A DNA stretch of 64,000 nucleotides from Candidatus Edwardsbacteria bacterium (GTDB lineage Bacteria > Edwardsbacteria > AC1 > EtOH8), in the NCBI GenBank assembly GCA_020053305.1, contig JAGVNJ010000074.1, forward strand, positions 7,348 through 71,347, read 5' to 3'. Positions 1-29,951 of this stretch are shown here, piece by piece. Numbering within the stretch: position 1 is the first letter of the stretch; every line of letters begins with the position of its first letter. The position numbers were made by a program, and so were the translations under genes. The notes below the pieces were generated by a model. That model saw only the letters and a list, made by a program, of their open reading frames with translations, searched no databases and was not told the DNA's origin.

Positions 1-135
1 CCGCACGGCAAGGTGTACGGCGGCCAGGTGGCGGCGCCCATCTGCCGCAATATAATGAAGCGGATCATCAGCCTGCCGGGAGGTTTCGCCCAGGACCTGA
101 TGACCAACAATGCGGGGTTAAATACGAAATTGTGA
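1..135 (+). CDS. 3' end of a penicillin-binding protein transpeptidase (FtsI-like), partial
   Basis: In-frame from nt 1 to TGA at 133-135. The peptide ...YGGQVAAPICRNIMKRII... resembles a PBP C-terminus, and its position just upstream of murE is the canonical dcw order. Confidence 0.5.
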   Translation, partial: PHGKVYGGQVAAPICRNIMKRIISLPGGFAQDLMTNNAGLNTKL

Positions 136-4039: not shown

Positions 4040-4040
4040 A

Positions 4041-6637: not shown

Positions 6638-7664
6638 GCAGGCGGATACTCAAGCCAAGATCACGTTTTATGGCACCAAGCAGGGCATAGAATCGCGGGT
6701 GCTACCGGGGATGGGCTATGATCTCAAATATATTTCTGCCAAGGGATTTTTGGGTAAAGGCTGGACAGACAAAATATTTTCCCCTCTCTGGATGGCAGCT
6801 GGCGTCTGGCAATCGCTCTTTTATATGGCCAGGAACCGCCCGGATGTGGTTCTGGGCACCGGCGGTTACGTTTCGGCCCCCCCGGTGGTGGCGGCCTGGA
6901 TGTTAAGAATCCCGGTATCCCTGCTGGCCCTGGATGTGATGCCCAGTCAAGCGGTGCGGTTCCTGGCCAGGTTTGCCGATCAGATATACGGCGGTTTTCC
7001 GGAATGCGCCCGGCACCTAATCCCCAAGTCCCAGGTGATATTCACCGGAAATCCCATCAGGCCGGAGATCGGAAGAATAACCAGAGGCCAGGGGGCGGTC
7101 CGGTTCGGGCTGGAAGAAAACAAAAAGACCATCCTGATATCCGGCGGGAGCCAGGGAGCCCACAGCATCAATATTTCGGTGCTGGATTCTTTGAAGATAC
7201 TCGATCAGGTCGGAAGGCTTAAGGAAATCCAGATAATATTTCAGACCGGCAAAAAAGATCATGGCCAGGCGACGGAAGCCGTCAAACGTTTTGCAACAAA
7301 AATAAAAGTCCTGCCCTATATCGACGAAATGCCTTACGCCCTGGCGGCCGCCGACCTGGTGATCAGCCGCTCCGGGGCCGGGATTTCGGAAACCCTGGCC
7401 TGCGGCCTGCCCTCGATACTGATACCGTATCCTTATGCCGCCAGCAATCACCAGGAATACAATGCCAAAAGTCTGGAAAAAGTCGGTGCAGCAGAAATGA
7501 TATTGGACAAGGATATGAACGGGCAAGTGTTGGCGGAAAAAATCACTAAAATTCTATTCGACCAGGACAGATATCACCAAATGGCCATCGCCTCCAAATC
7601 CCTGGCCCGGCCGGAAGCAGCAGGGAAAATTGCCGAAAATTTATTAAGAATTGCGGGAAAATAA
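6564..7664 (+). CDS. murG: undecaprenyldiphospho-muramoylpentapeptide beta-N-acetylglucosaminyltransferase
   Basis: N-terminus MELAIAGGGTGGHLYPGLAVA is the canonical MurG G-loop; GT28 family. Confidence 0.9.
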   Translation: MELAIAGGGTGGHLYPGLAVAAAVKQADTQAKITFYGTKQGIESRVLPGMGYDLKYISAKGFLGKGWTDKIFSPLWMAAGVWQSLFYMARNRPDVVLGTGGYVSAPPVVAAWMLRIPVSLLALDVMPSQAVRFLARFADQIYGGFPECARHLIPKSQVIFTGNPIRPEIGRITRGQGAVRFGLEENKKTILISGGSQGAHSINISVLDSLKILDQVGRLKEIQIIFQTGKKDHGQATEAVKRFATKIKVLPYIDEMPYALAAADLVISRSGAGISETLACGLPSILIPYPYAASNHQEYNAKSLEKVGAAEMILDKDMNGQVLAEKITKILFDQDRYHQMAIASKSLARPEAAGKIAENLLRIAGK

Positions 7665-9025
7665 TGTTCGGAAAGATCAAAAAGATACATTTCGTGGGCA
7701 TCGGCGGAATAGGCATGAGCGGGATCGCCGAGGTGCTGCTAAATCTTGGCTACCAGGTCTCCGGCTCCGACCTCAAATTTTCCGAGGTGACCGAGCACCT
7801 GCAACAGTTGGGGGCCACCATCGTGGAGGGGCACCGGGCGGAGAATGTGGGCCAGGCCGAAGTGGTGGTCACCTCGTCGGCGGTTCACGATGATAACCCC
7901 GAGGTCAGGGCGGCTCATGAGAAAAAGATCCCGGTGATCCGCCGGGCCGAGATGCTGGCGGAGCTGATGCGGCTCAAAGTGGGCATCGGGATCGCCGGGA
8001 CCCACGGCAAGACCTCCACCACCTCCATGATCGGCCAGGTGCTGACCCAGGCCGGTCTGGATCCCACCCTGGTCATCGGCGGAAAGGTCCGCTCATTAGG
8101 CAGCAACGCCAAGCTGGGCACCGGAGAATATCTGGTGGCCGAGGCCGACGAGTTCGACCGTTCTTTTTTGAAGCTGGCCCCGGTGATAGCGGTGATCACC
8201 ACCATCGAAGCGGAGCACCTGGACTGCTACAAGGATCTGGACGAGATCAAGAACGCCTTTGTGGAGTTCGCCAACAAGGTGCCGTTCTACGGCGCCATCA
8301 TCGCCTGCCTGGACGAGCGGGGGGTGCAGGCCATCATGCCGCGTCTGGAAAAAAGGTGCATAACCTACGGCCTGTCATCGCAGGCCGACCTGCAGGCCCG
8401 GGATATAAAATTCGACGGGATGAAGACCAGCTTCGAGGCGCACAACGGCAAGGGGCTTATGGGCAACATCAACCTGAACCAGCCCGGAATCCATAATGTC
8501 AAGAATTCGCTGGCCGCCATCGCGGTGGGCCTGGATATGGAGATTCCCTTTGAGAAGATCGCCCAAGCCCTGGCGGAGTTCAACGGGGTCTACCGCCGGT
8601 TTGAGATAAAGGGCGAGAGAAACGGGGTGCTGGTGATCGACGATTACGGACATCATCCCACCGAGATCGAGGCCACCCTCAAAGCCGCCAAGGACGGTTT
8701 TTCCCGCCGGGTGGTGGCGGTGTTCCAGCCCCACCTGTACAGCAGGACCAGGGATTTTCACACCGAATTCGGAGGGGCTTTCTTCCAGGCCGACCTGCTG
8801 CTGGTCACCGACATCTACCCGGCCCGGGAAGCCCCGATCCAGGGGGTAAGCGGCGAGCTGATCGCCAAAGCGGCCAGGGAAAAGGGCCACCGCAATGTCC
8901 ATTATATTGCCGATAAAAAAAATATCCCGGGCGAACTGGAAAAATTGGTCAAACCCAACGATATCGTGATCACCCTGGGGGCCGGGGATATCAATAAATA
9001 CGGGGAAGAATTTCTTAAGAAATGA
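7664..9025 (+). CDS. murC: UDP-N-acetylmuramate--L-alanine ligase
   Basis: GIAGTHGKTSTTS P-loop; Mur ligase. There is a 1-nt overlap with murG. Confidence 0.9.
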   Translation: MFGKIKKIHFVGIGGIGMSGIAEVLLNLGYQVSGSDLKFSEVTEHLQQLGATIVEGHRAENVGQAEVVVTSSAVHDDNPEVRAAHEKKIPVIRRAEMLAELMRLKVGIGIAGTHGKTSTTSMIGQVLTQAGLDPTLVIGGKVRSLGSNAKLGTGEYLVAEADEFDRSFLKLAPVIAVITTIEAEHLDCYKDLDEIKNAFVEFANKVPFYGAIIACLDERGVQAIMPRLEKRCITYGLSSQADLQARDIKFDGMKTSFEAHNGKGLMGNINLNQPGIHNVKNSLAAIAVGLDMEIPFEKIAQALAEFNGVYRRFEIKGERNGVLVIDDYGHHPTEIEATLKAAKDGFSRRVVAVFQPHLYSRTRDFHTEFGGAFFQADLLLVTDIYPAREAPIQGVSGELIAKAAREKGHRNVHYIADKKNIPGELEKLVKPNDIVITLGAGDINKYGEEFLKK

Positions 9026-9933
9026 AAATCTCATCCGATATATTGAAACAACTGGCCGCCAAGGCCAAAGGGCAGTGCCGTTTCAGCGAGCCGATGTCCC
9101 GCCATACCTCCTTCAGGATAGGCGGGCCGGCCGACCTGCTGGTGATCCCGGCCGATGAACCCGACCTGCAGAACCTGCTGGCCGGGATACATAAGTCAAG
9201 GATCCCGTATATGATCCTGGGAAACGGCACCAACCTGCTGGTGCTGGACGGCGGCATTCGGGGCGTGGTGATCAAGATGACCTCAGGGTTCCGGCAGCTG
9301 GACAGAAAGGAAAACACCCTTAAGGTCGGCGCCGGATACGCCCTTCCCCGCCTGGTGGAGGGGGCGGCCGAAATGAGCCTGGCTGGGCTGGAGTGGGGAG
9401 TGGGCATCCCGGGTTCGCTGGGCGGGGCGCTGGTGATGAATGCCGGGGCCTACGGCGGCCAGATGTCCGACATAGTCAAAAAGGTCTGGGGATACACCCC
9501 CTCCGGCGACCGGCTGACCCTGCGGCCCGGCCAGATAAATTTCGGCTACCGGCATTCCGAATATCCCGATGGTTTTGTGATCGCCGGCGCCGAACTGGAG
9601 ATGCAGGCGGGCAAAAAGACCAGGATAAAATCCGCCATGGAACAGTGGATGGGAAAAAGGCAGAGGAACCAGCCGCTGAGCCTGCCCTCGGCCGGCTGCA
9701 TCTTCAAAAATCCCGCCAACGACTCCGCCCGCCGGCTGATAGGGGTGGCCGGACTTAAGGGCAAAAAGGCAGGCGGGGCAAAGGTCTCCAGCAAGCATGC
9801 CAACTTCATTATCAATGATGGCGGGGCCAAAGCGGCCGATGTATTGAAGCTGATCGATATCATAAAGGAAAGAACCCATAAATCTGTCGGAATTGAACTG
9901 ACCCCCGAGGTCAAGACCGTCGGGGAGCCATGA
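9022..9933 (+). CDS. murB: UDP-N-acetylenolpyruvoylglucosamine reductase
   Basis: FAD-binding PCMH-type N-terminus and a MurB C-terminal domain. It sits where ddl usually lies. Confidence 0.85.
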   Translation: MKISSDILKQLAAKAKGQCRFSEPMSRHTSFRIGGPADLLVIPADEPDLQNLLAGIHKSRIPYMILGNGTNLLVLDGGIRGVVIKMTSGFRQLDRKENTLKVGAGYALPRLVEGAAEMSLAGLEWGVGIPGSLGGALVMNAGAYGGQMSDIVKKVWGYTPSGDRLTLRPGQINFGYRHSEYPDGFVIAGAELEMQAGKKTRIKSAMEQWMGKRQRNQPLSLPSAGCIFKNPANDSARRLIGVAGLKGKKAGGAKVSSKHANFIINDGGAKAADVLKLIDIIKERTHKSVGIELTPEVKTVGEP

Positions 9934-10721
9934 CCGCCTATTTCGACCGGAAGAGCGCCGGGCGGCTGCGTAAAAAACGCCGGCAAAAAGGGAAGCTGAA
10001 AGCCATATTGGTTCTGATCATCTTTTCGGTAATGCTGGCCGCCGGATTCTACGGGTATAAGCAGGGCCTCAAAAAAGGCATCTTTAATATCAAACAGGTC
10101 AATGTCAAAGGAAATCGGATGGCCGATACCGGCGGGATCATGGAAATAGTTGGAGACCTGAACGGCCGAGTCCTCTGGAGGGCAGGGTATAAAAAGATCG
10201 CGGCCCGGGTCCGCCAAAAATATCCGGCGGTAAAAAGATCCACATTCACAGTGTGGCCCTGGAGGATAGTGGATCTCCGTATCACCGAGCGGAAGCCCCT
10301 GGCCGAACTGCAGCACGATGGCCAGCTGGTTATAGACGCTGAAGGAGTGGTCTTCAGGACCAGTCTGATGCCCGCTGACAGCTACAGGGAAAAGCTTCCC
10401 CGGTTAAGGACCAGCGGCGCTGGCCCGGAGGGCATCTGGCGGGCCCTGCGTCTGATAGAATCGGCTCCCTGGGTGGAGAGCCAGTGGCTGTTCGATCCGT
10501 CCGACCAGAACGATATAAAACTGTGGCTGCCGGGAGGGGTGGCTGTTCATTTCGGCAACGGTCACTTCAAAAGGGAATGGCAGAAGCTGGGAGAGGTGCT
10601 GGAAAACCTGAAGAACGAAAATCTTACTGTTACCGAGATAGACCTGCGTTTCAACGGACAGGCTATCATCAAAGGACAGGCGCTGGTCCAGGGACAAAAA
10701 GATAAAACGGGAAGCAATTAA
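9930..10721 (+). CDS. ftsQ: cell division protein FtsQ/DivIB
   Basis: Basic N-terminus, a single TM segment, then a POTRA-like domain; located between murB and ftsA. Confidence 0.7.
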   Translation: MTAYFDRKSAGRLRKKRRQKGKLKAILVLIIFSVMLAAGFYGYKQGLKKGIFNIKQVNVKGNRMADTGGIMEIVGDLNGRVLWRAGYKKIAARVRQKYPAVKRSTFTVWPWRIVDLRITERKPLAELQHDGQLVIDAEGVVFRTSLMPADSYREKLPRLRTSGAGPEGIWRALRLIESAPWVESQWLFDPSDQNDIKLWLPGGVAVHFGNGHFKREWQKLGEVLENLKNENLTVTEIDLRFNGQAIIKGQALVQGQKDKTGSN

Positions 10722-10771
10722 AAATATTTTTCATAAATAAATACTCAAGATCATCATTAAGGAGGCCGGAA

Positions 10772-12001
10772 ATGGCTAATACAATCGTGGGTTTAGATCT
10801 GGGCACCACCAAGATCGCCTGCATAATCGCCGAGGTCGACAGGGATCAGCTTAAAATAGTAGGGGTGGGCACCTGCTCCTCGGAGGAGGGTCTGCGGCGG
10901 GGGGTGGTGGTCAACCTGGAGAAGACCGCCCGGTCCATAGAGAAGGCGGTCTCCGAGGCCGAGCTGATGGCCGGGGTCAAGATAAACTCGGTCTATGCCG
11001 GCATCGCCGGGGATCATATCCGCTCCATCAATTCGCGGGGGGTGATCGCGGTCTCCCGGGGGGGCAACGAGATCTCCCAGGCCGACGTGGACCGGGTGAT
11101 CGACGCCGCCCAGGCGGTGGCCATCCCCATGGATCGGGAGATCCTGCACGTGATTCCCCAGGGCTTCATCGTCGACGATCAGAAGGGCATCAAGGATCCC
11201 ATCGGAATGGCCGGGGTGCGGCTGGAGGTGGAGGTCCATATAGTCACCGGGGCGGTGGCCTCGGCCGAGAACATCTACAAAAGCATCAAACGGGCGGGGC
11301 TCAAGGTGGACGACCTGGTGCTGCAGCCGCTGGCCTCCAGCTATGCGGTGCTGACCCCGGACGAGAAGGCCCTGGGGGTGGCGCTGCTGGACATCGGGGG
11401 CGGGACCACCGACATCGCCATGTTTTTCGAGGATTCCATCCGCCACACCGCGGTGATAGGACTGGGCGGCAACAACCTGACCAGCGATATCGCCATCGGC
11501 CTCCGGACCCCCACCGATCAGGCCGAGAGCATCAAAAAGAAATACGGCTGCGCCACCCTGTCGCAGGTCAAGGAGGACGAGATGATCGGGGTGTTCGGGG
11601 TGGCCGGGCGCGAGGAGCGGGAGGTGTCCCGCCAGGTGCTGGCCCAGATAATCGAACCCCGGATGGAGGAGATATTCAGCCTGGCCAGCCGGGAGATCAA
11701 GCGCTCCGACTACGGCGAGATGCTGGGGGCCGGGGTGGTCCTGACCGGCGGGGCGGCCAAGCTTCCCGGGTGCGCCTCCCTGGCGGAGCAGGTGTTCAAC
11801 CAACCGGCCAGGGTGGGCGAGCCGCGCGGCATCAGCGGGGTGGTGGACCTGATCAAGGACCCGATGTACGCCACCGGGGTGGGGCTGGTGCTCTACGGCT
11901 ACGAGCGGAGGTTCAAGAATGACTCGATAGACGAGAGCAATCCCTTCGAATCGATCCTGAGCAAGATGAAGGGCTGGTTCGGCGACCTTTTCAACGGTTA
12001 A
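10772..12001 (+). CDS. ftsA: cell division protein FtsA
   Basis: Actin/Hsp70-fold ATPase motifs (VGLDLGTTKI, DIGGGTTD). An AGGAGG Shine-Dalgarno sits at 10757-10762. Confidence 0.9.
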   Translation: MANTIVGLDLGTTKIACIIAEVDRDQLKIVGVGTCSSEEGLRRGVVVNLEKTARSIEKAVSEAELMAGVKINSVYAGIAGDHIRSINSRGVIAVSRGGNEISQADVDRVIDAAQAVAIPMDREILHVIPQGFIVDDQKGIKDPIGMAGVRLEVEVHIVTGAVASAENIYKSIKRAGLKVDDLVLQPLASSYAVLTPDEKALGVALLDIGGGTTDIAMFFEDSIRHTAVIGLGGNNLTSDIAIGLRTPTDQAESIKKKYGCATLSQVKEDEMIGVFGVAGREEREVSRQVLAQIIEPRMEEIFSLASREIKRSDYGEMLGAGVVLTGGAAKLPGCASLAEQVFNQPARVGEPRGISGVVDLIKDPMYATGVGLVLYGYERRFKNDSIDESNPFESILSKMKGWFGDLFNG

Positions 12002-12056
12002 AATAAAATCATATATAATCCGTTATCAGGGAAAACGAAAATCAGGAGGTCCGATC

Positions 12057-13331
12057 ATGGCCGAGCAGATAAAACTTTTGGAACAGCAGATCGCCGAGGC
12101 GATCGCCGAGCCCTTGTACGGCATCATTCAGAACGAACCCAAGAAATCAAATAAAGGAGAAGAGAGTATGCTGGAATTCGAAGAGGATGTTATCAGCGAA
12201 CGCTGCAACATCAAGGTGGTGGGAGTGGGCGGCGGAGGCGGCAACGCCGTCAACCGGATGGTGGAGGCCGGCCTGAACGGGGTGGACTTCATCGCCGTCA
12301 ATACCGACCTGCAGGTGCTGAGGAAATCCCTGGCCGGCCAGAAACTGCAGATCGGGCACAAGCTGACCAGGGGCCTGGGATCGGGCGGCAATCCCGAGAT
12401 CGGGCGCCGGGCCTTCGAGGAGGACAAGGCCCGGGTGGCCGAGATGATCTCGGGCAGCGACATGCTGTTCATCACCGCCGGGATGGGCGGGGGCACCGGA
12501 ACCGGGGCCGCCCCGATGGTGGCCGATCTGGCCCGGGAGATGAACATCCTGACTGTGGCGGTGGTCACCAAGCCCTTCGAATGGGAGGGCCGCAAGAGGA
12601 TCCTGCAGTCCGAGGAGGGCATCCGGGACCTGAAGGAACGGGTGGACACCCTGATCGTCATCCCCAACCAGCGGGTGCTGTCAGTGGTGGGCAAACAGAC
12701 CAAGCTGACCGAATCTTTCCGAATCATAGACGACGTGCTGCTCAAGGCCACCCGCGGCATCTCCGACCTGATCACCGTTCCCGGACTGGTCAACGTGGAC
12801 TTCGCCGACGTCCGCGCGGTGATGCTGGAGCGGGGCGACGCCCTGATGGGGGTGGGAATCGGCACCGGCGAGAACCGCTCCATCACTGCGGCCGAGGAGG
12901 CCATCGCCAACACCCTGCTGGAGGGGGTTTCCATCAAGGGGGCCAAGGCCATTTTGCTGAACATCTCGGCCTCGGATGAGATGACTCTGACCGAGGTCAA
13001 CGAGGTGGCCTCGGTTATCCGCAGCGCGGCCGGCGAGGAGGCCAACCTGATCTTCGGAACGGTGATAGATCCCGAGGCCGGGGACAATATGAGCGTGACG
13101 GTGATAGCCACCGGCCTGGGCAACGGCGCACCCAAGATGGAGAAGGATCTTCCCGACAACAACCGGATAGATTTCCCCCAGTCCTTCCGCAAGGAGAACC
13201 TGGCTCCGGGGACCTTCCAGCGCAAGGAACAGCGCTCCAACATCCAGACCATTGTCACCAAAGGCCAGGTCAGCGCGGTAAAGCAGGACGATTTGGAGAT
13301 ACCCACCTACATGCGCCGCCTGATGGACTGA
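12057..13331 (+). CDS. ftsZ: cell division GTPase FtsZ
   Basis: Tubulin signature GGGTGTG, the NTDLQ motif and a C-terminal FtsA-binding peptide (DLEIPTYMRR). A Shine-Dalgarno lies at 12044-12049. An alternative ATG at 12168 is also preceded by GGAG. Confidence 0.95.
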   Translation: MAEQIKLLEQQIAEAIAEPLYGIIQNEPKKSNKGEESMLEFEEDVISERCNIKVVGVGGGGGNAVNRMVEAGLNGVDFIAVNTDLQVLRKSLAGQKLQIGHKLTRGLGSGGNPEIGRRAFEEDKARVAEMISGSDMLFITAGMGGGTGTGAAPMVADLAREMNILTVAVVTKPFEWEGRKRILQSEEGIRDLKERVDTLIVIPNQRVLSVVGKQTKLTESFRIIDDVLLKATRGISDLITVPGLVNVDFADVRAVMLERGDALMGVGIGTGENRSITAAEEAIANTLLEGVSIKGAKAILLNISASDEMTLTEVNEVASVIRSAAGEEANLIFGTVIDPEAGDNMSVTVIATGLGNGAPKMEKDLPDNNRIDFPQSFRKENLAPGTFQRKEQRSNIQTIVTKGQVSAVKQDDLEIPTYMRRLMD

Positions 13332-19774: not shown

Positions 19775-21121
19775 GTGATAACAATTCTGGCTACGTTATT
19801 CGTTCTGGGGATCATGGTGTTTGTCCACGAGCTGGGCCATTTCTATGTGGCCAAGAAGGTGGGCATCAGGGTATTAAAATTCTCCCTGGGGTTCGGTCCC
19901 AAATTGTTCGGATTCAAAAAAGGCGACACCCAATATCTGATCTCGGCCCTCCCCCTGGGAGGATATGTGAAACTGGACGGGGAGGAGGCTTTTGAAGAAA
20001 ATTATATCGCCAAGCCGGGCGATTATATGGCCGCCCCCTGGTGGGGCCGGGTGCTGATGGCCCTGGCCGGACCGATGGCCAACCTGCTTACGGCCTTTCT
20101 GATATTCATCATGCTGGGGCTGGTGGGATTCAACGCTCCGGATTATTCCACTTCGGTCGGCAAGGTGGAACTCGGCAGCCTGGCCCAGCAGGCGGGCATA
20201 AGCGAAGGCGATCGGATTATCGCCGTAAGCGATCGGGAAATTAAAACCTGGCACGGCCTGTGGCAGGAACTGCAGACCGAGAGTACAGCAGACTCGTTAT
20301 CCCTCACCTTGGACCGGGCGGGAGAAAGGAAAGTTCTTAATATTCCCTCATCCCGACGGATGAAATTTTTAGAGGGTATCGAGCCGGCGGTGCCGGCTCA
20401 ATTGGGAGAGGTCTATCCCAGCCTGCCGGCCTACCAGGCCGGGCTTAACGCCGGGGACATCATCCTGGCCATTGATGATAAGCCGGTAAAGACCTGGGAC
20501 GGCATGAGGGAGATCATCAACCAGAATGCCGGGCGGGAGACCAAGCTGCTGGTCGAGAGGGGCTCAGATACCTTCAGTGTCAGGATCACACCGGTGGAAC
20601 AGGATTATCCGGGGCAGGGTTCCGTCGGGGTGATTGGAGTCACCGCCCCGGTGTTCGGGAGCTATAAGCTGCGGCTGGGACTTTGGGCCTCGATCGCCAA
20701 TGCCACGGTCAGCACCGGAAGCTTGGTGGCCCGGACTTACGGCGTATTGTACAAGATCGTGGTAAAGCCCTCCTCGGCCAAACAGCTGGGCGGCATTCTG
20801 ATGATAGGAGAGATGGCCGGGAGCACCGCCAAAAAAGGCTTCAGCGACCTGATGCTGCTGGTGGCGCTACTTTCCATCAGTTTGATGGTTCTCAATCTCC
20901 TGCCTCTGCCGGTGTTGGACGGGGGCGTGATATTCTTCAGCCTGCTGGAGGGAATAAGAAAAAAGACCCTGCCGGTCAAGGTGCAGGTGGTCATCCAGCA
21001 GATCGGGATCGCCATTCTGATCATGCTGATGCTGTTCACCATTCTTAACGACGGAATGAAGATATTCAGCCGGCACTCGGCGGTCAAGAAGAACAGCCTG
21101 CAGATCGAACAGACCAAATAA
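19775..21121 (+). CDS. rseP: site-2 zinc metalloprotease RseP (M50 family)
   Basis: HELGHF zinc motif in TM1, two PDZ segments, and a C-terminal LDGG motif. Confidence 0.85.
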   Translation: MITILATLFVLGIMVFVHELGHFYVAKKVGIRVLKFSLGFGPKLFGFKKGDTQYLISALPLGGYVKLDGEEAFEENYIAKPGDYMAAPWWGRVLMALAGPMANLLTAFLIFIMLGLVGFNAPDYSTSVGKVELGSLAQQAGISEGDRIIAVSDREIKTWHGLWQELQTESTADSLSLTLDRAGERKVLNIPSSRRMKFLEGIEPAVPAQLGEVYPSLPAYQAGLNAGDIILAIDDKPVKTWDGMREIINQNAGRETKLLVERGSDTFSVRITPVEQDYPGQGSVGVIGVTAPVFGSYKLRLGLWASIANATVSTGSLVARTYGVLYKIVVKPSSAKQLGGILMIGEMAGSTAKKGFSDLMLLVALLSISLMVLNLLPLPVLDGGVIFFSLLEGIRKKTLPVKVQVVIQQIGIAILIMLMLFTILNDGMKIFSRHSAVKKNSLQIEQTK

Positions 21122-21196
21122 ATAGGCCGGGAGCGGCCAATAGCAGCCGACTGCGCCAAGGCTGTTTATTATTGGTAAACGTTAAAAGAGCATGTA

Positions 21197-23146
21197 ATGA
21201 AAGATTTATTGAAAATTCTGGAAAAGAAAAAAATTACTTTGCCGGATGACATTTTCGCTCTGCTCAACAATTGCAAAAACATCTCTGTTTTCGATTCTGT
21301 TGAGCAATTGGCAAGTGCTGCCGTTGGCGGCGAGAACAACAAAACTTTTGAAGTTAAGTACGACATTCCAGGGAAAGGGGAATACATCGAAGCAATAATC
21401 CACCGGGTAACCAATGGTATTTCCGCTAATTATATAGAGCCCTATATGCGCCGGCGGGACCCCGGCACCATGTCCATAGCAGATGCCCTGCCCAGCGATA
21501 AAAAGAGGTTTAAAGAGGAATTTGGGTATGAATTTCAATTGCTTAAATCAGAAACATTAAATTGGCTAAGAAAGCAGGACTTGGCCGTTTTTTTCTATTT
21601 TGCCGGAAGGGAAAAAATCGGCGTGGGAGGAATGGCCATTGCCCCGGCAAATGCCGGTTTTTTTGCCATGGGGTTAGCGATGTTGCAAAGCATCACTCCT
21701 GTTGTCAATTTACCGGAGGATTTTGCTATTGATTCTGTAATATATGTTGCCCCGACTTTTAGGCACACCCATTTTAAAGGCAGGCAGGTAGTTGTTCACA
21801 ACCGATCAGAAAACCGGCACGAAATTTATGCCTATAACCTATATCCGGGGCCAAGCGCCAAGAAAGGGTTGTATGGAGTATTATTGACAAAAGGGGAGAA
21901 AGAAGGATGGATCACTGCCCATTGCTCCACAGTTCAAGTAGTGAGCCCCTACGACAATTTAACAACTTTTATGCATGAAGGGGCAAGCGGCGGAGGAAAG
22001 AGCGAAATGCTGCAGCATATAGTAAGGGAGCAGGATGGTCAGGTTTTAATCGGGCAAAATATAGTGACCGGTGAAAAAAGGCTTATCAACCTGCCCCTTT
22101 TCTGCTTGTTTAATCCTGTTACCGATGATATGGCCCTCTGTCATCCATCAATCCAGTCGGATAGCGGAAAATTGACGGTTTTAGACGCAGAGAATGCTTG
22201 GTTTATTCGGGTTGACAGCATTAATGAATATGGAGACGATCCTTTCCTTGAAAAAATAACCATCAACCCCAAAAAGCCGTTGTTATTTTTGAATATTAAA
22301 TCTAAACCAGAGTGTACGGCGTTGATATGGGACCATATCGAAGATGAACCAGGAAAAAGATGCCCCAACCCCAGGGTAATTCTTCCAAGGGATGTTGTGC
22401 CCGGCGTTATCAGTAAACCCATTACAGTGGATGTCCGGAGTTTTGGCGTGCGCACTCCTCCCTGTTCAAAGGTTAGCCCCAGCTATGGTATTATCGGATT
22501 ATTCCATATCCTGCCGCCGTCATTAGCCTGGTTATGGAGGCTCGTTTCGCCCAGAGGCCATGCAAATCCGAGCATTGTGGGAGGCGGGGGAATGGAATCG
22601 GAAGGAGTCGGTTCGTATTGGCCTTTTGCGACCGGCAAGAGGGCGACCCATGCAAATATAATTCTTGAACAGATTATACAAACCCCGCGGATGAGATATA
22701 TTTTAGTGCCTAATCAGCACATTGGCGTTTGGAAGGTAGGCTTCAAACCACAGCTTTTAATGCGCGAATACCTCACACGCAGGGGAAATGCAAAATTAAG
22801 GAGCGACCAGTACCAAGAGGCCAGATGCCCCCTGTTGGGTTATGAATTGAACTATCTTACCATTGAAGGGGCAAAAATACCTTCGCGGTTTCTTCAGGTT
22901 CACCGGCAGAGCGAAGTCGGTAATGAAGGGTATGATGCCGGAGCACGGGTTTTATATGATTTTTTTAAAAATGAGTTGCAGAACTATCTGACGCCGGAAT
23001 TATCTGTTACCGGAAGAATGATAATTGAGGCATGTATGTCGGGCGCAACAGCTGAAGACTACAATTCGATAATACCAATGCATTACCAGTACTCATTCTT
23101 AACAATGGATGATTATGAACTTAGCAATAACAATACTTGGTACTAA
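21197..23146 (+). CDS. hypothetical P-loop protein with HprK/PEPCK-like Walker A (GASGGGKSE) and an LIG motif
   Basis: Markedly lower GC than its surroundings. The GxSGxGKSE motif matches the HPr kinase P-loop, and the spacing to a following VLIGQN resembles the PEPCK kinase-2 LIGDDEH motif. Confidence 0.5.
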   Translation: MKDLLKILEKKKITLPDDIFALLNNCKNISVFDSVEQLASAAVGGENNKTFEVKYDIPGKGEYIEAIIHRVTNGISANYIEPYMRRRDPGTMSIADALPSDKKRFKEEFGYEFQLLKSETLNWLRKQDLAVFFYFAGREKIGVGGMAIAPANAGFFAMGLAMLQSITPVVNLPEDFAIDSVIYVAPTFRHTHFKGRQVVVHNRSENRHEIYAYNLYPGPSAKKGLYGVLLTKGEKEGWITAHCSTVQVVSPYDNLTTFMHEGASGGGKSEMLQHIVREQDGQVLIGQNIVTGEKRLINLPLFCLFNPVTDDMALCHPSIQSDSGKLTVLDAENAWFIRVDSINEYGDDPFLEKITINPKKPLLFLNIKSKPECTALIWDHIEDEPGKRCPNPRVILPRDVVPGVISKPITVDVRSFGVRTPPCSKVSPSYGIIGLFHILPPSLAWLWRLVSPRGHANPSIVGGGGMESEGVGSYWPFATGKRATHANIILEQIIQTPRMRYILVPNQHIGVWKVGFKPQLLMREYLTRRGNAKLRSDQYQEARCPLLGYELNYLTIEGAKIPSRFLQVHRQSEVGNEGYDAGARVLYDFFKNELQNYLTPELSVTGRMIIEACMSGATAEDYNSIIPMHYQYSFLTMDDYELSNNNTWY

Positions 23147-23347
23147 AGGCGATTTTGAACATGGTAAAAGAGGAAAATAAAATTCAGAAACAGGCATAGC
23201 TGTTGCAGACAGAGTTGTCTCGGCAGACACTGGCTTAAACAATTCGTCGGCTTTGATTATTGTTGACTTTTATATATCAAGATTGTTATAATTCAAATCC
23301 TGTTTACTTTATAAAACAACAAAATTACATATATCGGGAGGGATGTT

Positions 23348-25432
23348 TTGAAGAATTATACTGCGGACAAGATCCACAACATTGTATTGGCCGGCCACGG
23401 CGGTTGCGGTAAGACCACCCTGGCCGAGGCCATGGTTCATGTCGGCAACCCCACCGGGCGCCTGGGACGGGTGGACGACGGCAACTCCATCTTTGATTTC
23501 GACATCGATGAGACCACCCGCAAGATATCCATCTTCTCATCCCTGGCGGCCTGCGAACACCAGGACCACAAGCTGAATGTGATAGACACCCCGGGCTATG
23601 CCGATTTTGCCGGCGAGGTCAAGGCCGGAATGCGGGTGGCCGACTGCGTGATCATCGTGGCCCAGGGGGTGGCCGGGATAGAGGTGGGCACCGACAAGTG
23701 CTGGAAGTATTCGGACGAGCTGAAGCTTCCCCGGGCCATCTTTCTGACCCGCCTGCTGAAGGAGCATTCCGATTTTTATAAATCGCTGGACCAGGCCCGC
23801 GATATGTTCGGCCATCAGGCGGTGCCCCTGACCCTGCCCATCGGCGACCAGCTGAACCTGAAGGGAGTGGTCGATCTCACGATTATGAAAGCCTTTCTCG
23901 AGAGTGAGGGAAAATCCACCATCGGCGAGATACCGGGCGAGATGGCCGGCAAAGCCAAGGAATATCGTGACAAGCTGGTGGAGGCGGTGGCCGAATCCGA
24001 TGATAACCTGATGGAGAAATTTTTGAACGGCGATAGCCTGACCGACCAGGAAGTATCCGATGGTTTAAAAACAGCCATTAGAAAAGGGAGCCTGATCCCG
24101 GTGTTCGCCGGCGACGGTTACTTCCAGGTGGGGGTCAACGCCCTGTTGAACTCCATTGCGGCCTTCTTCCCGACGGCGGCCGATACCGAAGAAGTGGTTG
24201 CCAAAAAAGCCGGCAGCGATGAGGAAATAATCATCAAGTGCGATTCGGCCGGAACCCCGGTGCTGTTCATGTTCAAGACCTTTATCGAACCCCATGCCGG
24301 AAATCTGAATTATTTCCGGATGTATTCCGGCACGCTGGAGCCGGGGATAGAGCTTTATAACGCCTCACTCAGCAAGGCGGAAAAATTCGGACAGTTCTAC
24401 TTTCCCAACGGAAAAGACCGCATCGACGCCCCCAAGATCAGTTGCGGCGATATCGGCATCGCCGTAAAACTGAAGGAATCGGGCACCGGCGACACCATCA
24501 GCACCAAGAATAACCAGATAATTCTGCCGGAGACCGTACTGCCCAAGCCGTCGATATCGGTGGCGGTGGAGGCAAAATCCAAGGACGACGAGGGCAAGAT
24601 ATCGGTGGGCCTGTCCCGCCTTAATGAGGAGGATCCCACCTTCACCTACGGCTTTGTCCCCGAGATCCGGCAGACCCTGATCAACGGCCTGGGCGAACTG
24701 CATTTGGACATCATGGTGGGGCGGTTGAAGAGGAAGTTCGGGGTGGAGGTCACCATCATCAAGCCCCGGATACCCTACCGCGAGACCATCTCCAAGAAAG
24801 TGGAGATCCAGGGCAAGCACAAGAAACAATCGGGCGGACACGGCCAGTACGGGGACGTCTGGCTGCGCCTGGAGCCGCTGCCCCGGGGCGGAGGCTTCGA
24901 GTTCGTGGACGAGGTGGTGGGCGGGGTGGTGCCCGGCAACTTCATTCCCTCGGTGGAGAAGGGCGTCAAGGCGGCCATGCTGGAAGGGGCGGTGGCGGGC
25001 TACCACATCGTGGACCTGAAGGCGGCCATATATTTCGGCTCCTATCACCCGGTGGACTCCTCCGGAACCAGCTTCGAGATCGCCGGTTCCATGGCCCTCA
25101 AGAAGGGCGTGCTGGACGCCTCTCCGGTTCTGCTGGAGCCCATCATGAAACTGGAGGTGGCCATCCCCGAGGAATTCGCCGGACAGGTGATGGGCGACCT
25201 CAACTCCCGCCGGGGCCGCATCAGCGGCATGGATTCGGCCAAGGGCATGCAGGTGATCAAAGCCACCGTGCCTCAGGGCGAGATGTACAAGTATTCCACC
25301 TCTCTGCGCTCCATGACCCAGGGCCGGGGCAACTTCGAGATGGAGTTTTCTCATTACGACCCGGTGCCTTTCGAGGCCACCCAGAAGATCATAGAAGAGG
25401 CCAAGAAGGAAAAGGAAGAGAAGCAAAAATAA
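23348..25432 (+). CDS. elongation factor G family protein (EF-G paralog with degenerate G motifs)
   Basis: Full EF-G domain layout. The motifs diverge from canon: G1 is AGHGGCGKTT, G3 is DTPGY (catalytic His to Tyr), G4 NKxD is replaced by TRLL, and G5 SAK is lost. Confidence 0.8.
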   Translation: MKNYTADKIHNIVLAGHGGCGKTTLAEAMVHVGNPTGRLGRVDDGNSIFDFDIDETTRKISIFSSLAACEHQDHKLNVIDTPGYADFAGEVKAGMRVADCVIIVAQGVAGIEVGTDKCWKYSDELKLPRAIFLTRLLKEHSDFYKSLDQARDMFGHQAVPLTLPIGDQLNLKGVVDLTIMKAFLESEGKSTIGEIPGEMAGKAKEYRDKLVEAVAESDDNLMEKFLNGDSLTDQEVSDGLKTAIRKGSLIPVFAGDGYFQVGVNALLNSIAAFFPTAADTEEVVAKKAGSDEEIIIKCDSAGTPVLFMFKTFIEPHAGNLNYFRMYSGTLEPGIELYNASLSKAEKFGQFYFPNGKDRIDAPKISCGDIGIAVKLKESGTGDTISTKNNQIILPETVLPKPSISVAVEAKSKDDEGKISVGLSRLNEEDPTFTYGFVPEIRQTLINGLGELHLDIMVGRLKRKFGVEVTIIKPRIPYRETISKKVEIQGKHKKQSGGHGQYGDVWLRLEPLPRGGGFEFVDEVVGGVVPGNFIPSVEKGVKAAMLEGAVAGYHIVDLKAAIYFGSYHPVDSSGTSFEIAGSMALKKGVLDASPVLLEPIMKLEVAIPEEFAGQVMGDLNSRRGRISGMDSAKGMQVIKATVPQGEMYKYSTSLRSMTQGRGNFEMEFSHYDPVPFEATQKIIEEAKKEKEEKQK

Positions 25433-25563: not shown

Positions 25564-26082
25564 ATGAAAAATAAGATCGCCATAGTTGCTTCGGAAATGA
25601 TAGAACGCTCTATTTTTGTAATAAGAGGGCATAAAGTGATGTTGGATGCCGATCTGGCCAAACTTTACGGGGTGGAGACAAAAGCGCTTAACCGGGCCGT
25701 GAAAAGGAACATTGAACGTTTTCCCGGCGATTTCCTGTTCAGACTTACTACCGCCGAAACTGATAATTTGAGGAGCCAAATTGGCACCTCAAGTTGGGGT
25801 GGCAAAAGATACTTACCCCATGCCTTTACCGAGCAGGGAGTAGCCATGCTTTCAGGTGTTCTTAAAAGCAAAAGAGCCGTAAACGTAAATATTGAAATAA
25901 TGCGGGCATTTGTAAAAATGCGTAAAATGCTTATCTCTCACGATGAACTTGCTCAAAAAGTGACGGACATGGAAAAGCGGTACGACGGAAATTTCAGAAT
26001 GGTTTTCAACGCCATAAAACAATTGATAGAACCTCCGGCCATAAAAAGAAACCCCATCGGATTCAGGTCCGATAAAAAGTAA
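25564..26082 (+). CDS. ORF6N (KilA-N-like) domain DNA-binding protein
   Basis: Conserved ORF6N stretch ..VMLDADLAKLYGVETKALNRAVKRNIERFPGDFLFRLT..SQ.GTSSWGGKRYLPHAFTEQGVAMLSGVLKS.. Confidence 0.75.
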   Translation: MKNKIAIVASEMIERSIFVIRGHKVMLDADLAKLYGVETKALNRAVKRNIERFPGDFLFRLTTAETDNLRSQIGTSSWGGKRYLPHAFTEQGVAMLSGVLKSKRAVNVNIEIMRAFVKMRKMLISHDELAQKVTDMEKRYDGNFRMVFNAIKQLIEPPAIKRNPIGFRSDKK

Positions 26083-26098
26083 TCAAAATGGACAGTAA

Positions 26099-27097
26099 AT
26101 GATCAAACCCAAAATAGCCATCATCTTCACCGGCGGGACCATCTCCATGAAGTCCAGCAAAAAAAGCGGGGGCGCGGTGCCGGCCTTCAAGGGGCGGGAC
26201 ATTCTAAAGCTCCTGCCGGTGATAAATAAAAGCTTCAAGATAGAGGTCCATGACTTCGGGCAATATCCCGGCCCTCATATCACCCCGGAGATGATGCTGG
26301 AGATATCCCGGATCGCCAAGAAATATCTGGTCCGGCCCGATATCAAAGGCCTGGTCGTCACCCACGGTACCGATACCCTGGAGGAGACGGCCTACTTTTT
26401 AGACCTGGCCATATTCTCTCCCAAGCCGGTGGTGGTGGTGGGGGCCATGAAGGACTGCACCGAGCTGGGCTGGGACGGACCGGCCAACCTGATGGGCGCC
26501 GCCCGGACGGCGATTTCGCCCGATGCCCGAAACAAAGGGATCCTGGTATTTCTGAACAACACCATCAATTCGGCCGGGGAGGTCACCAAGACCAGCACCG
26601 ATTCCTTCGAGACCTTCCGCAGCCCCGACCTGGGGCCATTGGGCTGGGTGGACCAGGACCGGGTGCTGTTCTACCGCCAGCCGATGTACCGCGAGCATTA
26701 CGAAGTCAAAAAGATACAGCCCCGGGTGGATCTTTTTAAAATGGCGGTGGGAATGGACTCCCGCCTTGTCAAATACGCGGTCGATTCCGGGGCCAAAGGG
26801 CTGGTGATCGAGGGCATGGGCCGGGGGAATATTCCGCCCGATGTAGTGCCCGGGATAGAGTACGCCATTGCTAAAAAGATCCCGGTCATCCTTTGTTCCC
26901 GCTGCATCGGGGGAAGGGTGCTGGGAACTTATGCCTACCCAGGCGGCGGTGCCCAGCTGATCAAGAAAGGCGTCATCCTGGGAGGGCACCTGCCGGGGCA
27001 GAAGGCCCGGATAAAATTGATGATCCTACAGGGGAAAGATATGTCAATACTTCAGATCAAGAAGGCCTTTGAATGCCGGGAATATTTCTGCGCTTAA
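26099..27097 (+). CDS. L-asparaginase (type I) / asparaginase-glutaminase family
   Basis: The N-terminal IAIIFTGGTISM matches the asparaginase threonine motif (TGGTI); the length is typical. Confidence 0.8.
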   Translation: MIKPKIAIIFTGGTISMKSSKKSGGAVPAFKGRDILKLLPVINKSFKIEVHDFGQYPGPHITPEMMLEISRIAKKYLVRPDIKGLVVTHGTDTLEETAYFLDLAIFSPKPVVVVGAMKDCTELGWDGPANLMGAARTAISPDARNKGILVFLNNTINSAGEVTKTSTDSFETFRSPDLGPLGWVDQDRVLFYRQPMYREHYEVKKIQPRVDLFKMAVGMDSRLVKYAVDSGAKGLVIEGMGRGNIPPDVVPGIEYAIAKKIPVILCSRCIGGRVLGTYAYPGGGAQLIKKGVILGGHLPGQKARIKLMILQGKDMSILQIKKAFECREYFCA

Positions 27098-27104
27098 GGA
27101 GAGA

Positions 27105-28505
27105 ATGGATTATAACCAGGTAAATAACCATATTCTAAAAAAAATGGTTTCTATCGTCGGAGAGAAATATCTGATAACCCTGGACGGCGACAAGGAGCCC
27201 TATTCCCACGACGAGACACTGCACCACAAATTCATGCCGGCGGTGGTGGTCAAACCGGGAAATACGGCAGAGGTATCAGCCATAATGAAACTGGCCAATG
27301 CCGAAAAGATCCCGCTTACCCCCAGGGGCGCCGGCACCGGATTGTCGGGCGGGGCTCTGCCGGTGTGCGGCGGCATCCTTCTGTCACTGGAGAGGTTCGA
27401 CAAGATTCTGGAGATCGACGAAGAGAACCTGATGGCGGTTACCCAGCCGGCGGTGATCACCGGGCAGTTGCAGAAGGCGGTCGAGGAGAAGGGACTGTTC
27501 TACCCGCCGGATCCGGCCAGTTTGGATTCCTGTTCCATCGGCGGCAATATCGCCGAGAACGCCGGGGGTGCCAGAGCCTTCAAGTACGGGGTCACTCGCC
27601 ATTATCTCTGCGGCCTGGAGGCGGTCTGGCCCAACGGCGATATCTCCCGGCTGGGGGGCAGGATCATCAAGGATGTTTCTGGCTACGACCTGATGCATCT
27701 AATATGCGGATCGGAGGGGACCCTGGCCATCATTACCGAGATCACCTTGAGGCTGCTGCCAAAGCCGAAGGTCCAGGCTGACCTCCTGATCCCATTCTCA
27801 TCCATCGAGGATGCGGTTAAAGCCACCAATGCCGTGATTCGGGAAAGGATAATCCCCGCCACCATGGAATTCATGGAAAAGAAGGCCATTTTGGCAGCCG
27901 AAGCCTTTTTGGAGAAGAAGGCGCCCTACCGGGAAGCCGAGGCTCATCTGCTGGTCCAGCTGGACGGCGAGGCCCGGGAGGACCTGCAGAAGATCTACGA
28001 AAGGATAGGGGAGATAGTCTCCGACTACGGCGCACTGGATGTGCTGGTGGCCGAGGACCGGCCGTCACAGGAACGGCTGTGGGATATCCGCCGCTCCCTG
28101 TCAGAAGCGCTGACCGCCAAAAGCCCGGTCCGGGAGCGGGAGGACGTGGTGGTACCCAAGTCAAAAATACCGCAGCTTTTTAAGGAACTGGAACTTTTGC
28201 AGAAGAAATATTCCATGGAAATCGTTTCCTTCGGGCACATCGGAGACGGCAATATCCATGTAAACATCCTCAAAGGGGAATCTCAGACAGAAAAATGGCA
28301 GGAGATTCTGCCCGGTCTGCTTGACGAAATGTTCAAAAAGGTGGTGGAACTGGGGGGGACCATCTCCGGGGAGCACGGCATCGGCTATGTCAAGAAAAAA
28401 TACCTGCCTTTGGCGGTGGATGCCCCGGCCTTGGCCATGATGAAAGCCGTTAAACGGGCCATTGACCCGCAGAATATATTGAATCCGGAGAAGATATTTC
28501 TTTAA
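27105..28505 (+). CDS. FAD-linked oxidase (GlcD / D-lactate dehydrogenase family)
   Basis: PCMH-type FAD-binding domain (PRGAGTGLSGGA) and a C-terminal FAD-oxidase domain. The start is placed at the ATG at 27105, preceded by AAGGAGAG; the ORF-track start at 27069 would overlap the asparaginase gene. Confidence 0.75.
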   Translation: MDYNQVNNHILKKMVSIVGEKYLITLDGDKEPYSHDETLHHKFMPAVVVKPGNTAEVSAIMKLANAEKIPLTPRGAGTGLSGGALPVCGGILLSLERFDKILEIDEENLMAVTQPAVITGQLQKAVEEKGLFYPPDPASLDSCSIGGNIAENAGGARAFKYGVTRHYLCGLEAVWPNGDISRLGGRIIKDVSGYDLMHLICGSEGTLAIITEITLRLLPKPKVQADLLIPFSSIEDAVKATNAVIRERIIPATMEFMEKKAILAAEAFLEKKAPYREAEAHLLVQLDGEAREDLQKIYERIGEIVSDYGALDVLVAEDRPSQERLWDIRRSLSEALTAKSPVREREDVVVPKSKIPQLFKELELLQKKYSMEIVSFGHIGDGNIHVNILKGESQTEKWQEILPGLLDEMFKKVVELGGTISGEHGIGYVKKKYLPLAVDAPALAMMKAVKRAIDPQNILNPEKIFL

Positions 28506-28709: not shown

Positions 28710-29951
28710 ATGATCCAAATATTAAAATATCTCAGTTTAGCAACAATACTTGGCATTTGGAGCCTTTATGGCAATAATTATCTTTTTGCGGCCGAACAGC
28801 CTGATAGCGAAGCCGTTCATACAGTTTGGACCAGCCCGGAGTTGGACGGGGATGTGTTGGAGTTGTTCTTTAGTCCTGATACAAATATTCTATATCCCAA
28901 TAAAGCATTGATATTTAGAGAAACATATTGGTATAAGTTAGTTTATTTTAACAGTGGTGGCGGCATAGTTAAAACGACAACATTAGCAACAAGAAGCGAA
29001 AAATCTTGGGATATACCATGGGCAATTAGCTGGACGCCTGATGGTAAGAAGTTCTGCGTTTCAAGTCAATATATAGGCTCAGCAAGCAGGTATGATATAC
29101 GATACAAATATATTGTTTATGACGAAGCTGGTACGGAATTGCTTTTTAAAAGTAATGCAGGTATCACCAATGAAATCAGCCCTGACGGGAAATACATATT
29201 GACCGTTAACGGGGGTAAGGGAATGGTTGAATTATATGACGACAAAGGCAGGTTGATAAAAGCCATTGATAAACCGATTGGATATGGTGAAGGTATTGGT
29301 CCTACGGGCAAGGTACAATTTGCTGGCAATAAAATATTCGTCTTAATGGAAGATATGAAACCGAAGTATAGTTTTTATGCTATAGATCAAAAAGGAAAAT
29401 TATTATTCAAATTAGAGAATATTAATGGTCGTGAAGAAGTCGCTGATTTCATAGCCTCAAACAAAGGTGATTTTATTGTTTTAAATTCGGGGAATCCCTA
29501 TAAGGGGGATTTAAGAAAATATAATAATAACGGTAAAATGGTGTGGCAAATAAATACGGAAGTAGGGCAACTAGGACTTGTGCTAAGTGCTAATGATAAA
29601 TACCTTTTTGCATATACTGACGGTGTTTGTTTTATGGTCAATACGGATACAGGTGAATTTGTACGAATACAGGATAGAAGAATTGGTACCAGCGGAAGAA
29701 AGGTAATAGTTTTTGATAATGGTACTGCGATGTTCACTCAAAATGAAAATAATTTGGCATTTATTAATAAAGATGGGCAATTTGAAATGGAAGAAATGCC
29801 GGGTTTGCCATTTTCAAGATATATTAATTTAAAAAGGGGCATATTTATTAGTATAGAATCCAAATACGATGAGCTTCAAAAAATGATAATTAAAAAAGCA
29901 GGCTCGAAATATATTGATAGGTTAAAGAAAGTAAGCGGTGACTCAAAATAG
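28710..29951 (+). CDS. secreted beta-propeller-like repeat protein (PD40/WD40-like), hypothetical
   Basis: Signal peptide and repeated ..SPDGKY..V.. blades; AT-rich relative to flanks. Confidence 0.5.
   Translation: MIQILKYLSLATILGIWSLYGNNYLFAAEQPDSEAVHTVWTSPELDGDVLELFFSPDTNILYPNKALIFRETYWYKLVYFNSGGGIVKTTTLATRSEKSWDIPWAISWTPDGKKFCVSSQYIGSASRYDIRYKYIVYDEAGTELLFKSNAGITNEISPDGKYILTVNGGKGMVELYDDKGRLIKAIDKPIGYGEGIGPTGKVQFAGNKIFVLMEDMKPKYSFYAIDQKGKLLFKLENINGREEVADFIASNKGDFIVLNSGNPYKGDLRKYNNNGKMVWQINTEVGQLGLVLSANDKYLFAYTDGVCFMVNTDTGEFVRIQDRRIGTSGRKVIVFDNGTAMFTQNENNLAFINKDGQFEMEEMPGLPFSRYINLKRGIFISIESKYDELQKMIIKKAGSKYIDRLKKVSGDSK

Follow-up and report, generated by a model that had tools for sequence, protein, structure and literature searches.

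A DUF4914 gene of very probable Bacteroidales origin in Candidatus Edwardsbacteria and the place of its family in the phosphoenolpyruvate carboxykinase superfamily

The open reading frame (ORF) at positions 21197-23146 (+) of a 64-kb stretch of Candidatus Edwardsbacteria DNA from contig JAGVNJ010000074.1, hereafter called the window, starts with ATG and encodes a protein of 649 amino acids (aa) that belongs to the Pfam family DUF4914. As the first-pass annotation had stated, the ORF is flanked by rseP and an EF-G paralog, which the ORF call and the Pfam domains bear out. The window's RseP has homologues at 92-93% identity that are named Candidatus Edwardsbacteria, and its identity outside Edwardsbacteria/TA06 is about 40%. 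The locus is composed of the following features:

19775-21121, + strand: rseP, the native left flank, encoding an M50 protease with PDZ domains (Pfam)
21121-23259: very probably acquired cassette of 2139 bp; blastn homology to the loci L086, L088 and L089 of relatives ends at 21120 and resumes at 23260
21166-21196, + strand: probable donor-derived leader of about 30 nt; the blastn match to the Bacteroidales-type locus L085 begins at 21166
21197-23146, + strand: the DUF4914 gene
23260-25432, + strand: EF-G paralog, the native right flank including its own promoter region (ORF 23348-25432, five domains in Pfam)
23263-23292, + strand: promoter-like site of the EF-G paralog, TTGACT-18-TATAAT; a GGAGG Shine-Dalgarno sequence is also present

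The assignment to DUF4914 (PF16260) relies on a match of 972.1 bits (E=1.1e-292), in which residues 15-626 cover positions 1-612 of the 612-position profile; the gathering threshold of 25.7 bits is thus exceeded over the full model. In the Pfam hmmscan at E<=1, no family besides DUF4914 was matched, the ATP-dependent phosphoenolpyruvate (PEP) carboxykinase (PEPCK) family PEPCK_ATP included. The NCBIfam scan, which included the pckA model, also gave no match, a single-sequence phmmer search of the PDB gave no PEPCK, and PADLOC, PHROGs and tblastn against plasmids gave no match to the protein. The exact sequence of the window protein has no database record, and the 98%-identical protein P0001 stood in for it. 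At least 8000 homologues were found in a word-indexed search, the best 120 of them at 76-98% identity (76-86% for those from Bacteroidales), and those of the 120 that are named in their source are annotated as "DUF4914 family protein" and assigned to Bacteroidales or Bacteroidota. The window protein is 84-86% identical to Bacteroidales members, and identity within the family is 70-85% across the order Bacteroidales. When 1.84 billion 50%-cluster representatives were searched exhaustively, 670 matches were obtained, about 10 of which are full-length divergent members at 29-56% identity. So many homologues in so few divergent clusters mean that the family is large, compact and very strongly conserved. 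It is already catalogued, though uncharacterised, and does not amount to an entirely new type of system; a full-text literature search found no paper that mentions DUF4914 or PF16260.

The relatives of the host keep the order ftsZ, HHH, a 624-aa protein, TPR, a 248-aa protein and rseP, followed beyond the gap by EF-G and asparaginase. In close Edwardsbacteria relatives, a segment of about 605 bp with a 184-aa ORF occupies the position of the cassette. This ORF lies in the rseP/EF-G gap of L086-L090, and nothing lies in that of the more distant L091 and L092; this difference in occupancy identifies the intergenic site as a hotspot for gene turnover. The 184-aa ORF itself (8381-8935 in L086; also in L087-L090) is conserved among these relatives and has no Pfam or NCBIfam match. 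Four independent metagenome contigs (L081-L084) harbour a 98%-identical copy of the DUF4914 protein in the exact synteny of the window and with the same junctions, and the cassette is 97.6% identical across them. None of 80 Bacteroidales loci has a neighbour in common with the window.

An alternative to acquisition is that the gene is native to Edwardsbacteria, its low GC content resulting from gene-specific codon or amino-acid bias, or that the contig is chimeric. An assembly chimera is excluded by the identical junctions in four more independent assemblies, which stem from different projects. A native origin is opposed by the absence of the gene at the syntenic site in five relatives with 57-93% RseP identity. 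The extreme conservation of DUF4914 could be raised in its favour, since constraint might, in principle, keep identity high between phyla. However, when 95 proteins were placed in a neighbour-joining tree with the most divergent member as the root, the pair formed by the window protein and its L081 counterpart lay about 19 nodes inside the Bacteroidales radiation and was nested there in 40/40 bootstrap replicates. The window protein is 86% identical to the nearest Bacteroidales-type sequences, compared with a median of 76% among Bacteroidales.

The base composition points in the same direction, but by itself it is only suggestive of acquisition, and the comparative evidence decides. The GC content of the ORF is 0.446, compared with a window mean of 0.528, and its GC content at third codon positions (GC3) is 0.465, compared with 0.731 in rseP and 0.790 in the EF-G gene, which places it 0.27-0.33 below both neighbours. 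The sharp drop in composition described in the first-pass annotation holds relative to the neighbouring genes. Within the window as a whole, the deviation is moderate: the GC3 of the ORF is about 1.4 standard deviations under the gene mean, and the window is compositionally uneven, with several further genes at an equal or lower GC content, a point that favours a native gene. The AT-rich flanks that had also been described are found only on the downstream side (23147-23347, GC 0.34), the upstream side having a GC content of 0.49 (21122-21196). The last 88 nt of the downstream spacer (23260-23347) are the native EF-G promoter region, which is conserved in relatives without the gene. The tetranucleotide check proposed with the suggestion of foreign origin gave a correlation of r=0.44 between the ORF and the host profile, where equally sized pieces of host DNA reach 0.85 +/- 0.07, and of r=0.77-0.82 with the DNA that flanks DUF4914 in Bacteroidales. 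In 75 Bacteroidales loci, the GC3 of the DUF4914 gene agrees with that of its flanks (difference +0.006 +/- 0.048); a low GC content is therefore not a property of the family.

Other GC-poor islands in the window are more extreme than the DUF4914 gene. The one at 28710-29951 is a 413-aa ORF with a GC content of 0.354 and no Pfam match. A DUF2157 and GDYXXLXY pair (54977-56838) has a GC content of about 0.37, and a 207-aa ORF with a GC content of 0.296 and no Pfam match (57942-58565) has an AIRS-like gene on one side and a ThiS-ThiF fusion on the other. The ORF6N gene at 25564-26082 (GC 0.426) is present in L086 and L089 and absent from L088.

Sequence divergence provides a further argument. 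Between the window and L081 (7878-9827), the rate of synonymous substitution (dS) of the DUF4914 gene is 0.064, compared with 0.27-0.55 for five upstream genes and the EF-G gene, i.e. 4-8 times lower than in the flanking native genes. The cassette is younger than the split of the two host lineages. It was probably spread recently among Edwardsbacteria lineages by homologous recombination. Genotypes with and without DUF4914 have been found in the same samples: ERZ27315067 (L082, L089) and JGI 3300002220 (L083, L090). The ratio of nonsynonymous to synonymous substitution (dN/dS) for the same pair is 0.13, and DUF4914 is under purifying selection in Edwardsbacteria.

The borders of the cassette carry traces of the donor. 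Upstream of the ATG, alignment A2 shows the pattern TTATTA...TAAAAGAGCA..TAATG to be common to the window and Bacteroidales-type loci, and about 26 nt 3' of the stop codon are also Bacteroidales-like. The GC-rich segment of about 45 nt that follows the rseP stop codon (21121-21165) has no match in the Bacteroidales loci or in those Edwardsbacteria relatives that are without DUF4914; it holds a short stem, CAGCC...GGCTG, followed by TTTATT, and might be the rseP terminator. The presence of a Shine-Dalgarno sequence was considered as a donor marker and dropped: with such a sequence in only about 40% of the host genes, it carries no information. The cassette contains no integrase, insertion sequence element or mobility gene, and the search for direct or inverted repeats at the junctions yielded only short matches at chance level. 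PADLOC, PHROGs, the plasmid comparison and the junction repeats thus do not characterise it as a mobile element, a defence island or phage cargo.

The absence of the gene at the syntenic site in relatives, its nesting within the donor clade and its donor-like composition together make horizontal transfer from Bacteroidales close to certain, and leave a native gene or a chimeric contig next to no probability. A single-gene cassette from a Bacteroidales donor very probably replaced the 184-aa ORF between rseP and the EF-G paralog. The gene came without the operon partners that it usually has in Bacteroidales, and it has since been retained under purifying selection.

The relationship of DUF4914 to PEPCKs can be reached only with a profile of the family, as the single-sequence searches were empty. 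Such a profile was built from alignment A1, which comprises 18 DUF4914 members with identities down to 27%. Searched against the PDB, it gave significant matches solely to PEPCKs (1j3b, E=3.6e-10; 1ytm, 1.2e-7; 1ii2, 1.7e-5), with the E. coli PckA entries at about 0.02. An AlphaFold2 model based on A1 reached a mean predicted local distance difference test score (pLDDT) of 91.1 and a predicted template modelling score (pTM) of 0.90, and 50/50 among the Foldseek matches listed for this model are PEPCKs. In hhalign comparisons with E. coli PckA (the sequence of 1aq2_A, identical over 540 residues), A1 aligned with 94% probability in local mode; with a two-sequence PckA profile in global mode, the probability was 97.7% (E=1.1e-11) over 498 columns that span both proteins end to end. 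The protein has the fold of the PEPCK superfamily, with its N-terminal domain and P-loop C-terminal domain, and its homology to this superfamily can be regarded as practically certain.

In PckA, the catalytic residues serve the binding of oxaloacetate (OAA), PEP and CO2 (Arg and Tyr), act as Mn2+ ligands (Lys, His and Asp), form the P-loop (Lys and Ser/Thr) or, as an arginine, stack on the adenine. The columns of A1 that are invariant are R85, R87, R189, Y216, G218, K222, K223, S264, G265, K268, E270, D310, D311, E332, P371, N391, R393, G417, F477, P505, G510, R523 and G548; H242, conserved in at least 90% of the 18 sequences, and R338 are nearly invariant. The motifs of the window protein map to E. 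coli PckA as follows:

21449-21463, + strand: RRRDP, residues 85-89; invariant R87 corresponds to R65 and P89 to P67 (A1; global hhalign)
21842-21868, + strand: YPGPSAKKG, residues 216-224; Y216 corresponds to Y207, G218 to G209, K222 to K212 and K223 to K213
21917-21928, + strand: AHCS, residues 241-244; H242 corresponds to H232
21980-22006, + strand: P-loop GASGGGKSE, residues 262-270; S264 corresponds to S250, K268 to K254 and S269 to T255
22043-22060, + strand: VLIGQN, residues 283-288; strand of a non-conserved inserted hairpin, not a catalytic motif
22115-22135, + strand: PVTDDMA, residues 307-313; invariant D310-D311 (in NPVTDDMA), D311 corresponding to D269
22202-22216, + strand: FIRVD, residues 336-340; near-invariant R338 corresponds to K288, and E332 just upstream to E282
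22367-22378, + strand: NPRV, residues 391-394; invariant N391 corresponds to N331 and R393 to R333 (also in the 1ii2 profile alignment, domain 2)
22757-22771, + strand: LMREY, residues 521-525; invariant R523 corresponds to R449, and also to the Arg of VTRALL in 1j3b

As far as sequence mapping can tell, the complete catalytic constellation of PEPCK (R65, Y207, K212, K213, H232, K254/T255, D268/D269 and R333 of PckA) is shown by these correspondences to be conserved in DUF4914, and the arginine of the ATP-PEPCK adenine pocket has its equivalent in the invariant R523. PckA structures with mutations of Y207, K212 and G209 are among those listed by Foldseek. Some points call for caution with this mapping and with the catalytic activity that it would imply. 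The mapping rests on a profile alignment at about 18% identity and on a predicted structure. The hhalign alignment split the DD pair and placed D268 on Q287; the equivalence of D310 and D268 is deduced from the order of the strands and from the invariance of D310. Furthermore, the invariant residues R85, R189, Q197, H201, R453 and N457/S459 have no counterpart in PckA and could re-shape the substrate specificity.

The first-pass annotation had recognised the P-loop GASGGGKSEMLQHIV (residues 262-276), followed by VLIGQN, as the only motif and had taken the pair as characteristic of the HPr kinase/PEPCK fold. Both elements are present, 6 residues apart instead of the 10 reported, but VLIGQN is not a partner of the P-loop. 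It varies in divergent members and lies in an inserted beta-hairpin, whose strands (283-288 and 294-297 in the DSSP assignment of the model) are located between the P-loop helix and the strand of the DD pair; its reading as a kinase-2 or Walker-B-like motif was rejected on these grounds. Nor is the P-loop the only recognisable motif, given the many other invariant residues with PEPCK equivalents. The statement that the protein lacks the other catalytic residues of PEPCK was mistaken, as the full-length fold is present and their equivalents are invariant or nearly so. What stands of that interpretation is the hint at the fold and the foreign origin; the confident match found is to an uncharacterised family with predicted PEPCK-like chemistry and not to a characterised family with a different one.

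Three classes of PEPCK are recognised, which use ATP, GTP or pyrophosphate (PPi) (PMC8100219). DUF4914 forms a fourth lineage of the superfamily that has diverged deeply, with a two-domain fold of about 650 aa and about 12-18% identity to these classes. With ATP-PEPCK (PckA, EC 4.1.1.49; E. coli 1aq2, T. thermophilus 1j3b and T. cruzi 1ii2) it shares only about 14-18% identity, and the protein fails the Pfam PEPCK_ATP and NCBIfam pckA models. The protein exceeds PckA in length by about 110 residues; it has an N-terminal extension, an insertion of 8 residues before R87, the beta-hairpin 283-297, which separates the P-loop helix from the DD strand, and further insertions. The identity to GTP-PEPCK (EC 4.1.1.32; 9e32, 2faf and rat cPEPCK) is 12-13%, and the profile matches are marginal (E 0.7-2.4). 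PPi-PEPCK (EC 4.1.1.38; P. freudenreichii 8e1u and 6k31) gave no sequence-profile match and a TM-score normalised to the target of 0.42; with 1126 aa and extra domains, it also differs in size and domain content from the 649-aa protein.

A different view, close to the kinase acting on an unknown substrate that had been proposed earlier, would make DUF4914 a protein kinase resembling HPr kinase/phosphorylase (HprK/P) or another P-loop regulator. The P-loop favours it, but HprK/P covers only about 150 residues of the DUF4914 model and has neither the N-terminal domain of PEPCK nor the OAA-, PEP- and Mn-binding residues that DUF4914 conserves. The window protein also differs from HprK/P in its length (HprK/P has about 300 aa) and does not match the Hpr_kinase_N and Hpr_kinase_C models. 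This view is highly improbable.

Information on the function of DUF4914 may be drawn from its gene neighbourhood in Bacteroidales. Co-directional neighbours were counted in 71 Bacteroidales loci with neighbours on both sides:

XRE-cupin regulator: 38/71 loci, upstream of DUF4914
Sua5/TsaC: 17/71 loci, passes TIGR00057
PurE-like protein: 15/71 loci, often overlapping the 3' end of DUF4914 (median -8 nt)
HAD-IIIA phosphatase: 14/71 loci, usually at position -1 (median gap 1 nt)
beta-carbonic anhydrase: 14/71 loci
class I/II aminotransferase: 7/71 loci
MFS transporter: 5/71 loci
malate dehydrogenase: 4/71 loci, passes TIGR01763 (median gap 9 nt)

The copy in the window, which lies outside the Bacteroidales heartland of the family, has no XRE-cupin, HAD, PurE, TsaC or carbonic anhydrase neighbour. 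An XRE-cupin regulator is again found near a DUF4914 member of 56% identity. In a Bacteroidales metagenome-assembled genome (L012, 10226-11800), a canonical ATP-type PckA with 67% identity to its E. coli counterpart is located directly downstream of DUF4914 on the same strand, and in L093 (5749-7605) a canonical GTP-type PEPCK lies directly upstream of a 38%-identical member, also on the same strand; the two cases belong to independent lineages. As a rough estimate, about 0.05 such adjacencies would be expected by chance for about 90 loci, at one PEPCK per several thousand genes. At position +1 of Bacteroidales loci such as L023, L007 and L009, the PurE-like gene whose start overlaps the end of DUF4914 contains an SAHK motif, which is typical of class II (CO2-using) PurE, and scores 141.8 bits against the NCBIfam purE cut-off of 149.6. 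The cluster of PurE-like protein, TsaC and beta-carbonic anhydrase looks enriched in enzymes that use CO2 or bicarbonate.

Together, the conserved residues and the neighbourhood suggest that the DUF4914 protein may be an active metal-dependent phosphoryl-transfer enzyme with PEPCK-type chemistry, a reading that can be given a probability of roughly 0.55. The most likely reaction would be that of oxaloacetate and a phosphoryl donor to PEP and CO2, or its reverse, and the donor would probably be a nucleotide. The chances of precisely this OAA/PEP reaction are placed somewhat below even. Several observations weigh against the proposed activity. The literature search with DUF4914 and PF16260 gave no biochemical data on any member, and the contexts of several divergent members (P0134 and P0133) are uninformative. 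DUF4914 coexists with a canonical PEPCK in at least two genomes (L012 and L093), where a simple isozyme would be redundant; it may thus differ in its substrate, its phosphoryl donor or the direction of its reaction. Moreover, an OAA/PEP reaction offers no obvious reason for its tightest operon partners, the HAD-IIIA phosphatase and the PurE-like protein.

These observations lend some weight to the idea of a PEPCK scaffold with another substrate, i.e. a kinase or carboxykinase that acts on a different keto or enol acid, or that generates a phospho-intermediate dephosphorylated by the HAD-IIIA enzyme. Apart from the coexistence and adjacency with canonical PEPCKs, it is favoured by the translational coupling of the HAD-IIIA phosphatase upstream of DUF4914 in 13-14 loci, the additional invariant residues that PckA lacks, and the inserted hairpin (283-297) with the about 110 extra residues. 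However, the residues of PckA that contact OAA, PEP, CO2 and the metal are all conserved (the equivalents of R65, Y207, K213, H232, D269 and R333), and the presence of malate dehydrogenase, an aminotransferase, carbonic anhydrase and even PEPCK next to DUF4914 directs attention to the OAA/CO2 node. The gene in Edwardsbacteria, moreover, works as a cassette on its own, with no HAD gene beside it, and purifying selection still acts on it. Another substrate is therefore considered rather unlikely.

A PEPCK-type enzyme with a non-nucleotide donor or acceptor (PPi/Pi or polyphosphate), similar to PEP carboxytransphosphorylase, would explain the coexistence with ATP- and GTP-dependent PEPCKs. The invariant equivalent of the adenine-pocket arginine and the dissimilarity to PPi-PEPCK may be set beside it, and it appears improbable. 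A role of DUF4914 as a PurK-like, bicarbonate-activating partner of the adjacent PurE-like gene was also considered; the conserved residues, however, are those of OAA/PEP binding, and this explanation is of low probability.

The predicted PEPCK-type activity can be placed in a wider context. DUF4914, which is widespread in Bacteroidales, may represent a fourth functional class of PEPCK or else a carboxykinase whose substrate or phosphoryl donor is new. It would belong to a CO2-handling module in Bacteroidales and, as a stand-alone gene, be beneficial enough for an unrelated candidate phylum to take it up and keep it. Such a module would comprise beta-carbonic anhydrase, malate dehydrogenase, aminotransferase, the PurE-like carboxylase and TsaC under the control of the XRE-cupin regulator. 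As a whole, this proposal is decidedly tentative.

Nearly all genes of the 64-kb window are on the + strand, and they include a complete co-directional dcw cluster at 132-13331 (murE, murF, mraY, murD, ftsW, murG, murC, murB, ftsQ, ftsA and ftsZ). No tRNA or Rfam feature was found across the window. The relatives harbour a TPR_12 gene of 358-368 aa between asparaginase and a FAD-linked oxidase (L086 11798-15350); in the window (26099-28505), this gene is lacking and the asparaginase and FAD-linked oxidase genes overlap, which represents another indel polymorphism close to the cassette.

PEPCK acts at the PEP-pyruvate-oxaloacetate node, where anaerobes, Bacteroidales among them, fix CO2 into oxaloacetate as part of their fermentation to succinate and propionate. 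Structure-based databases may already show that DUF4914 resembles PEPCK in structure; new are the argument from individual residues, the evidence from gene neighbourhoods and the documentation of a transfer across phyla. DUF4914 constitutes a gap in the central-carbon annotation of gut and sediment Bacteroidales, and the annotation "DUF4914 family protein" can become "PEP carboxykinase-like protein". The transfer of this gene alone across phyla, together with its maintenance under purifying selection, suggests that it provides a self-contained metabolic capability.

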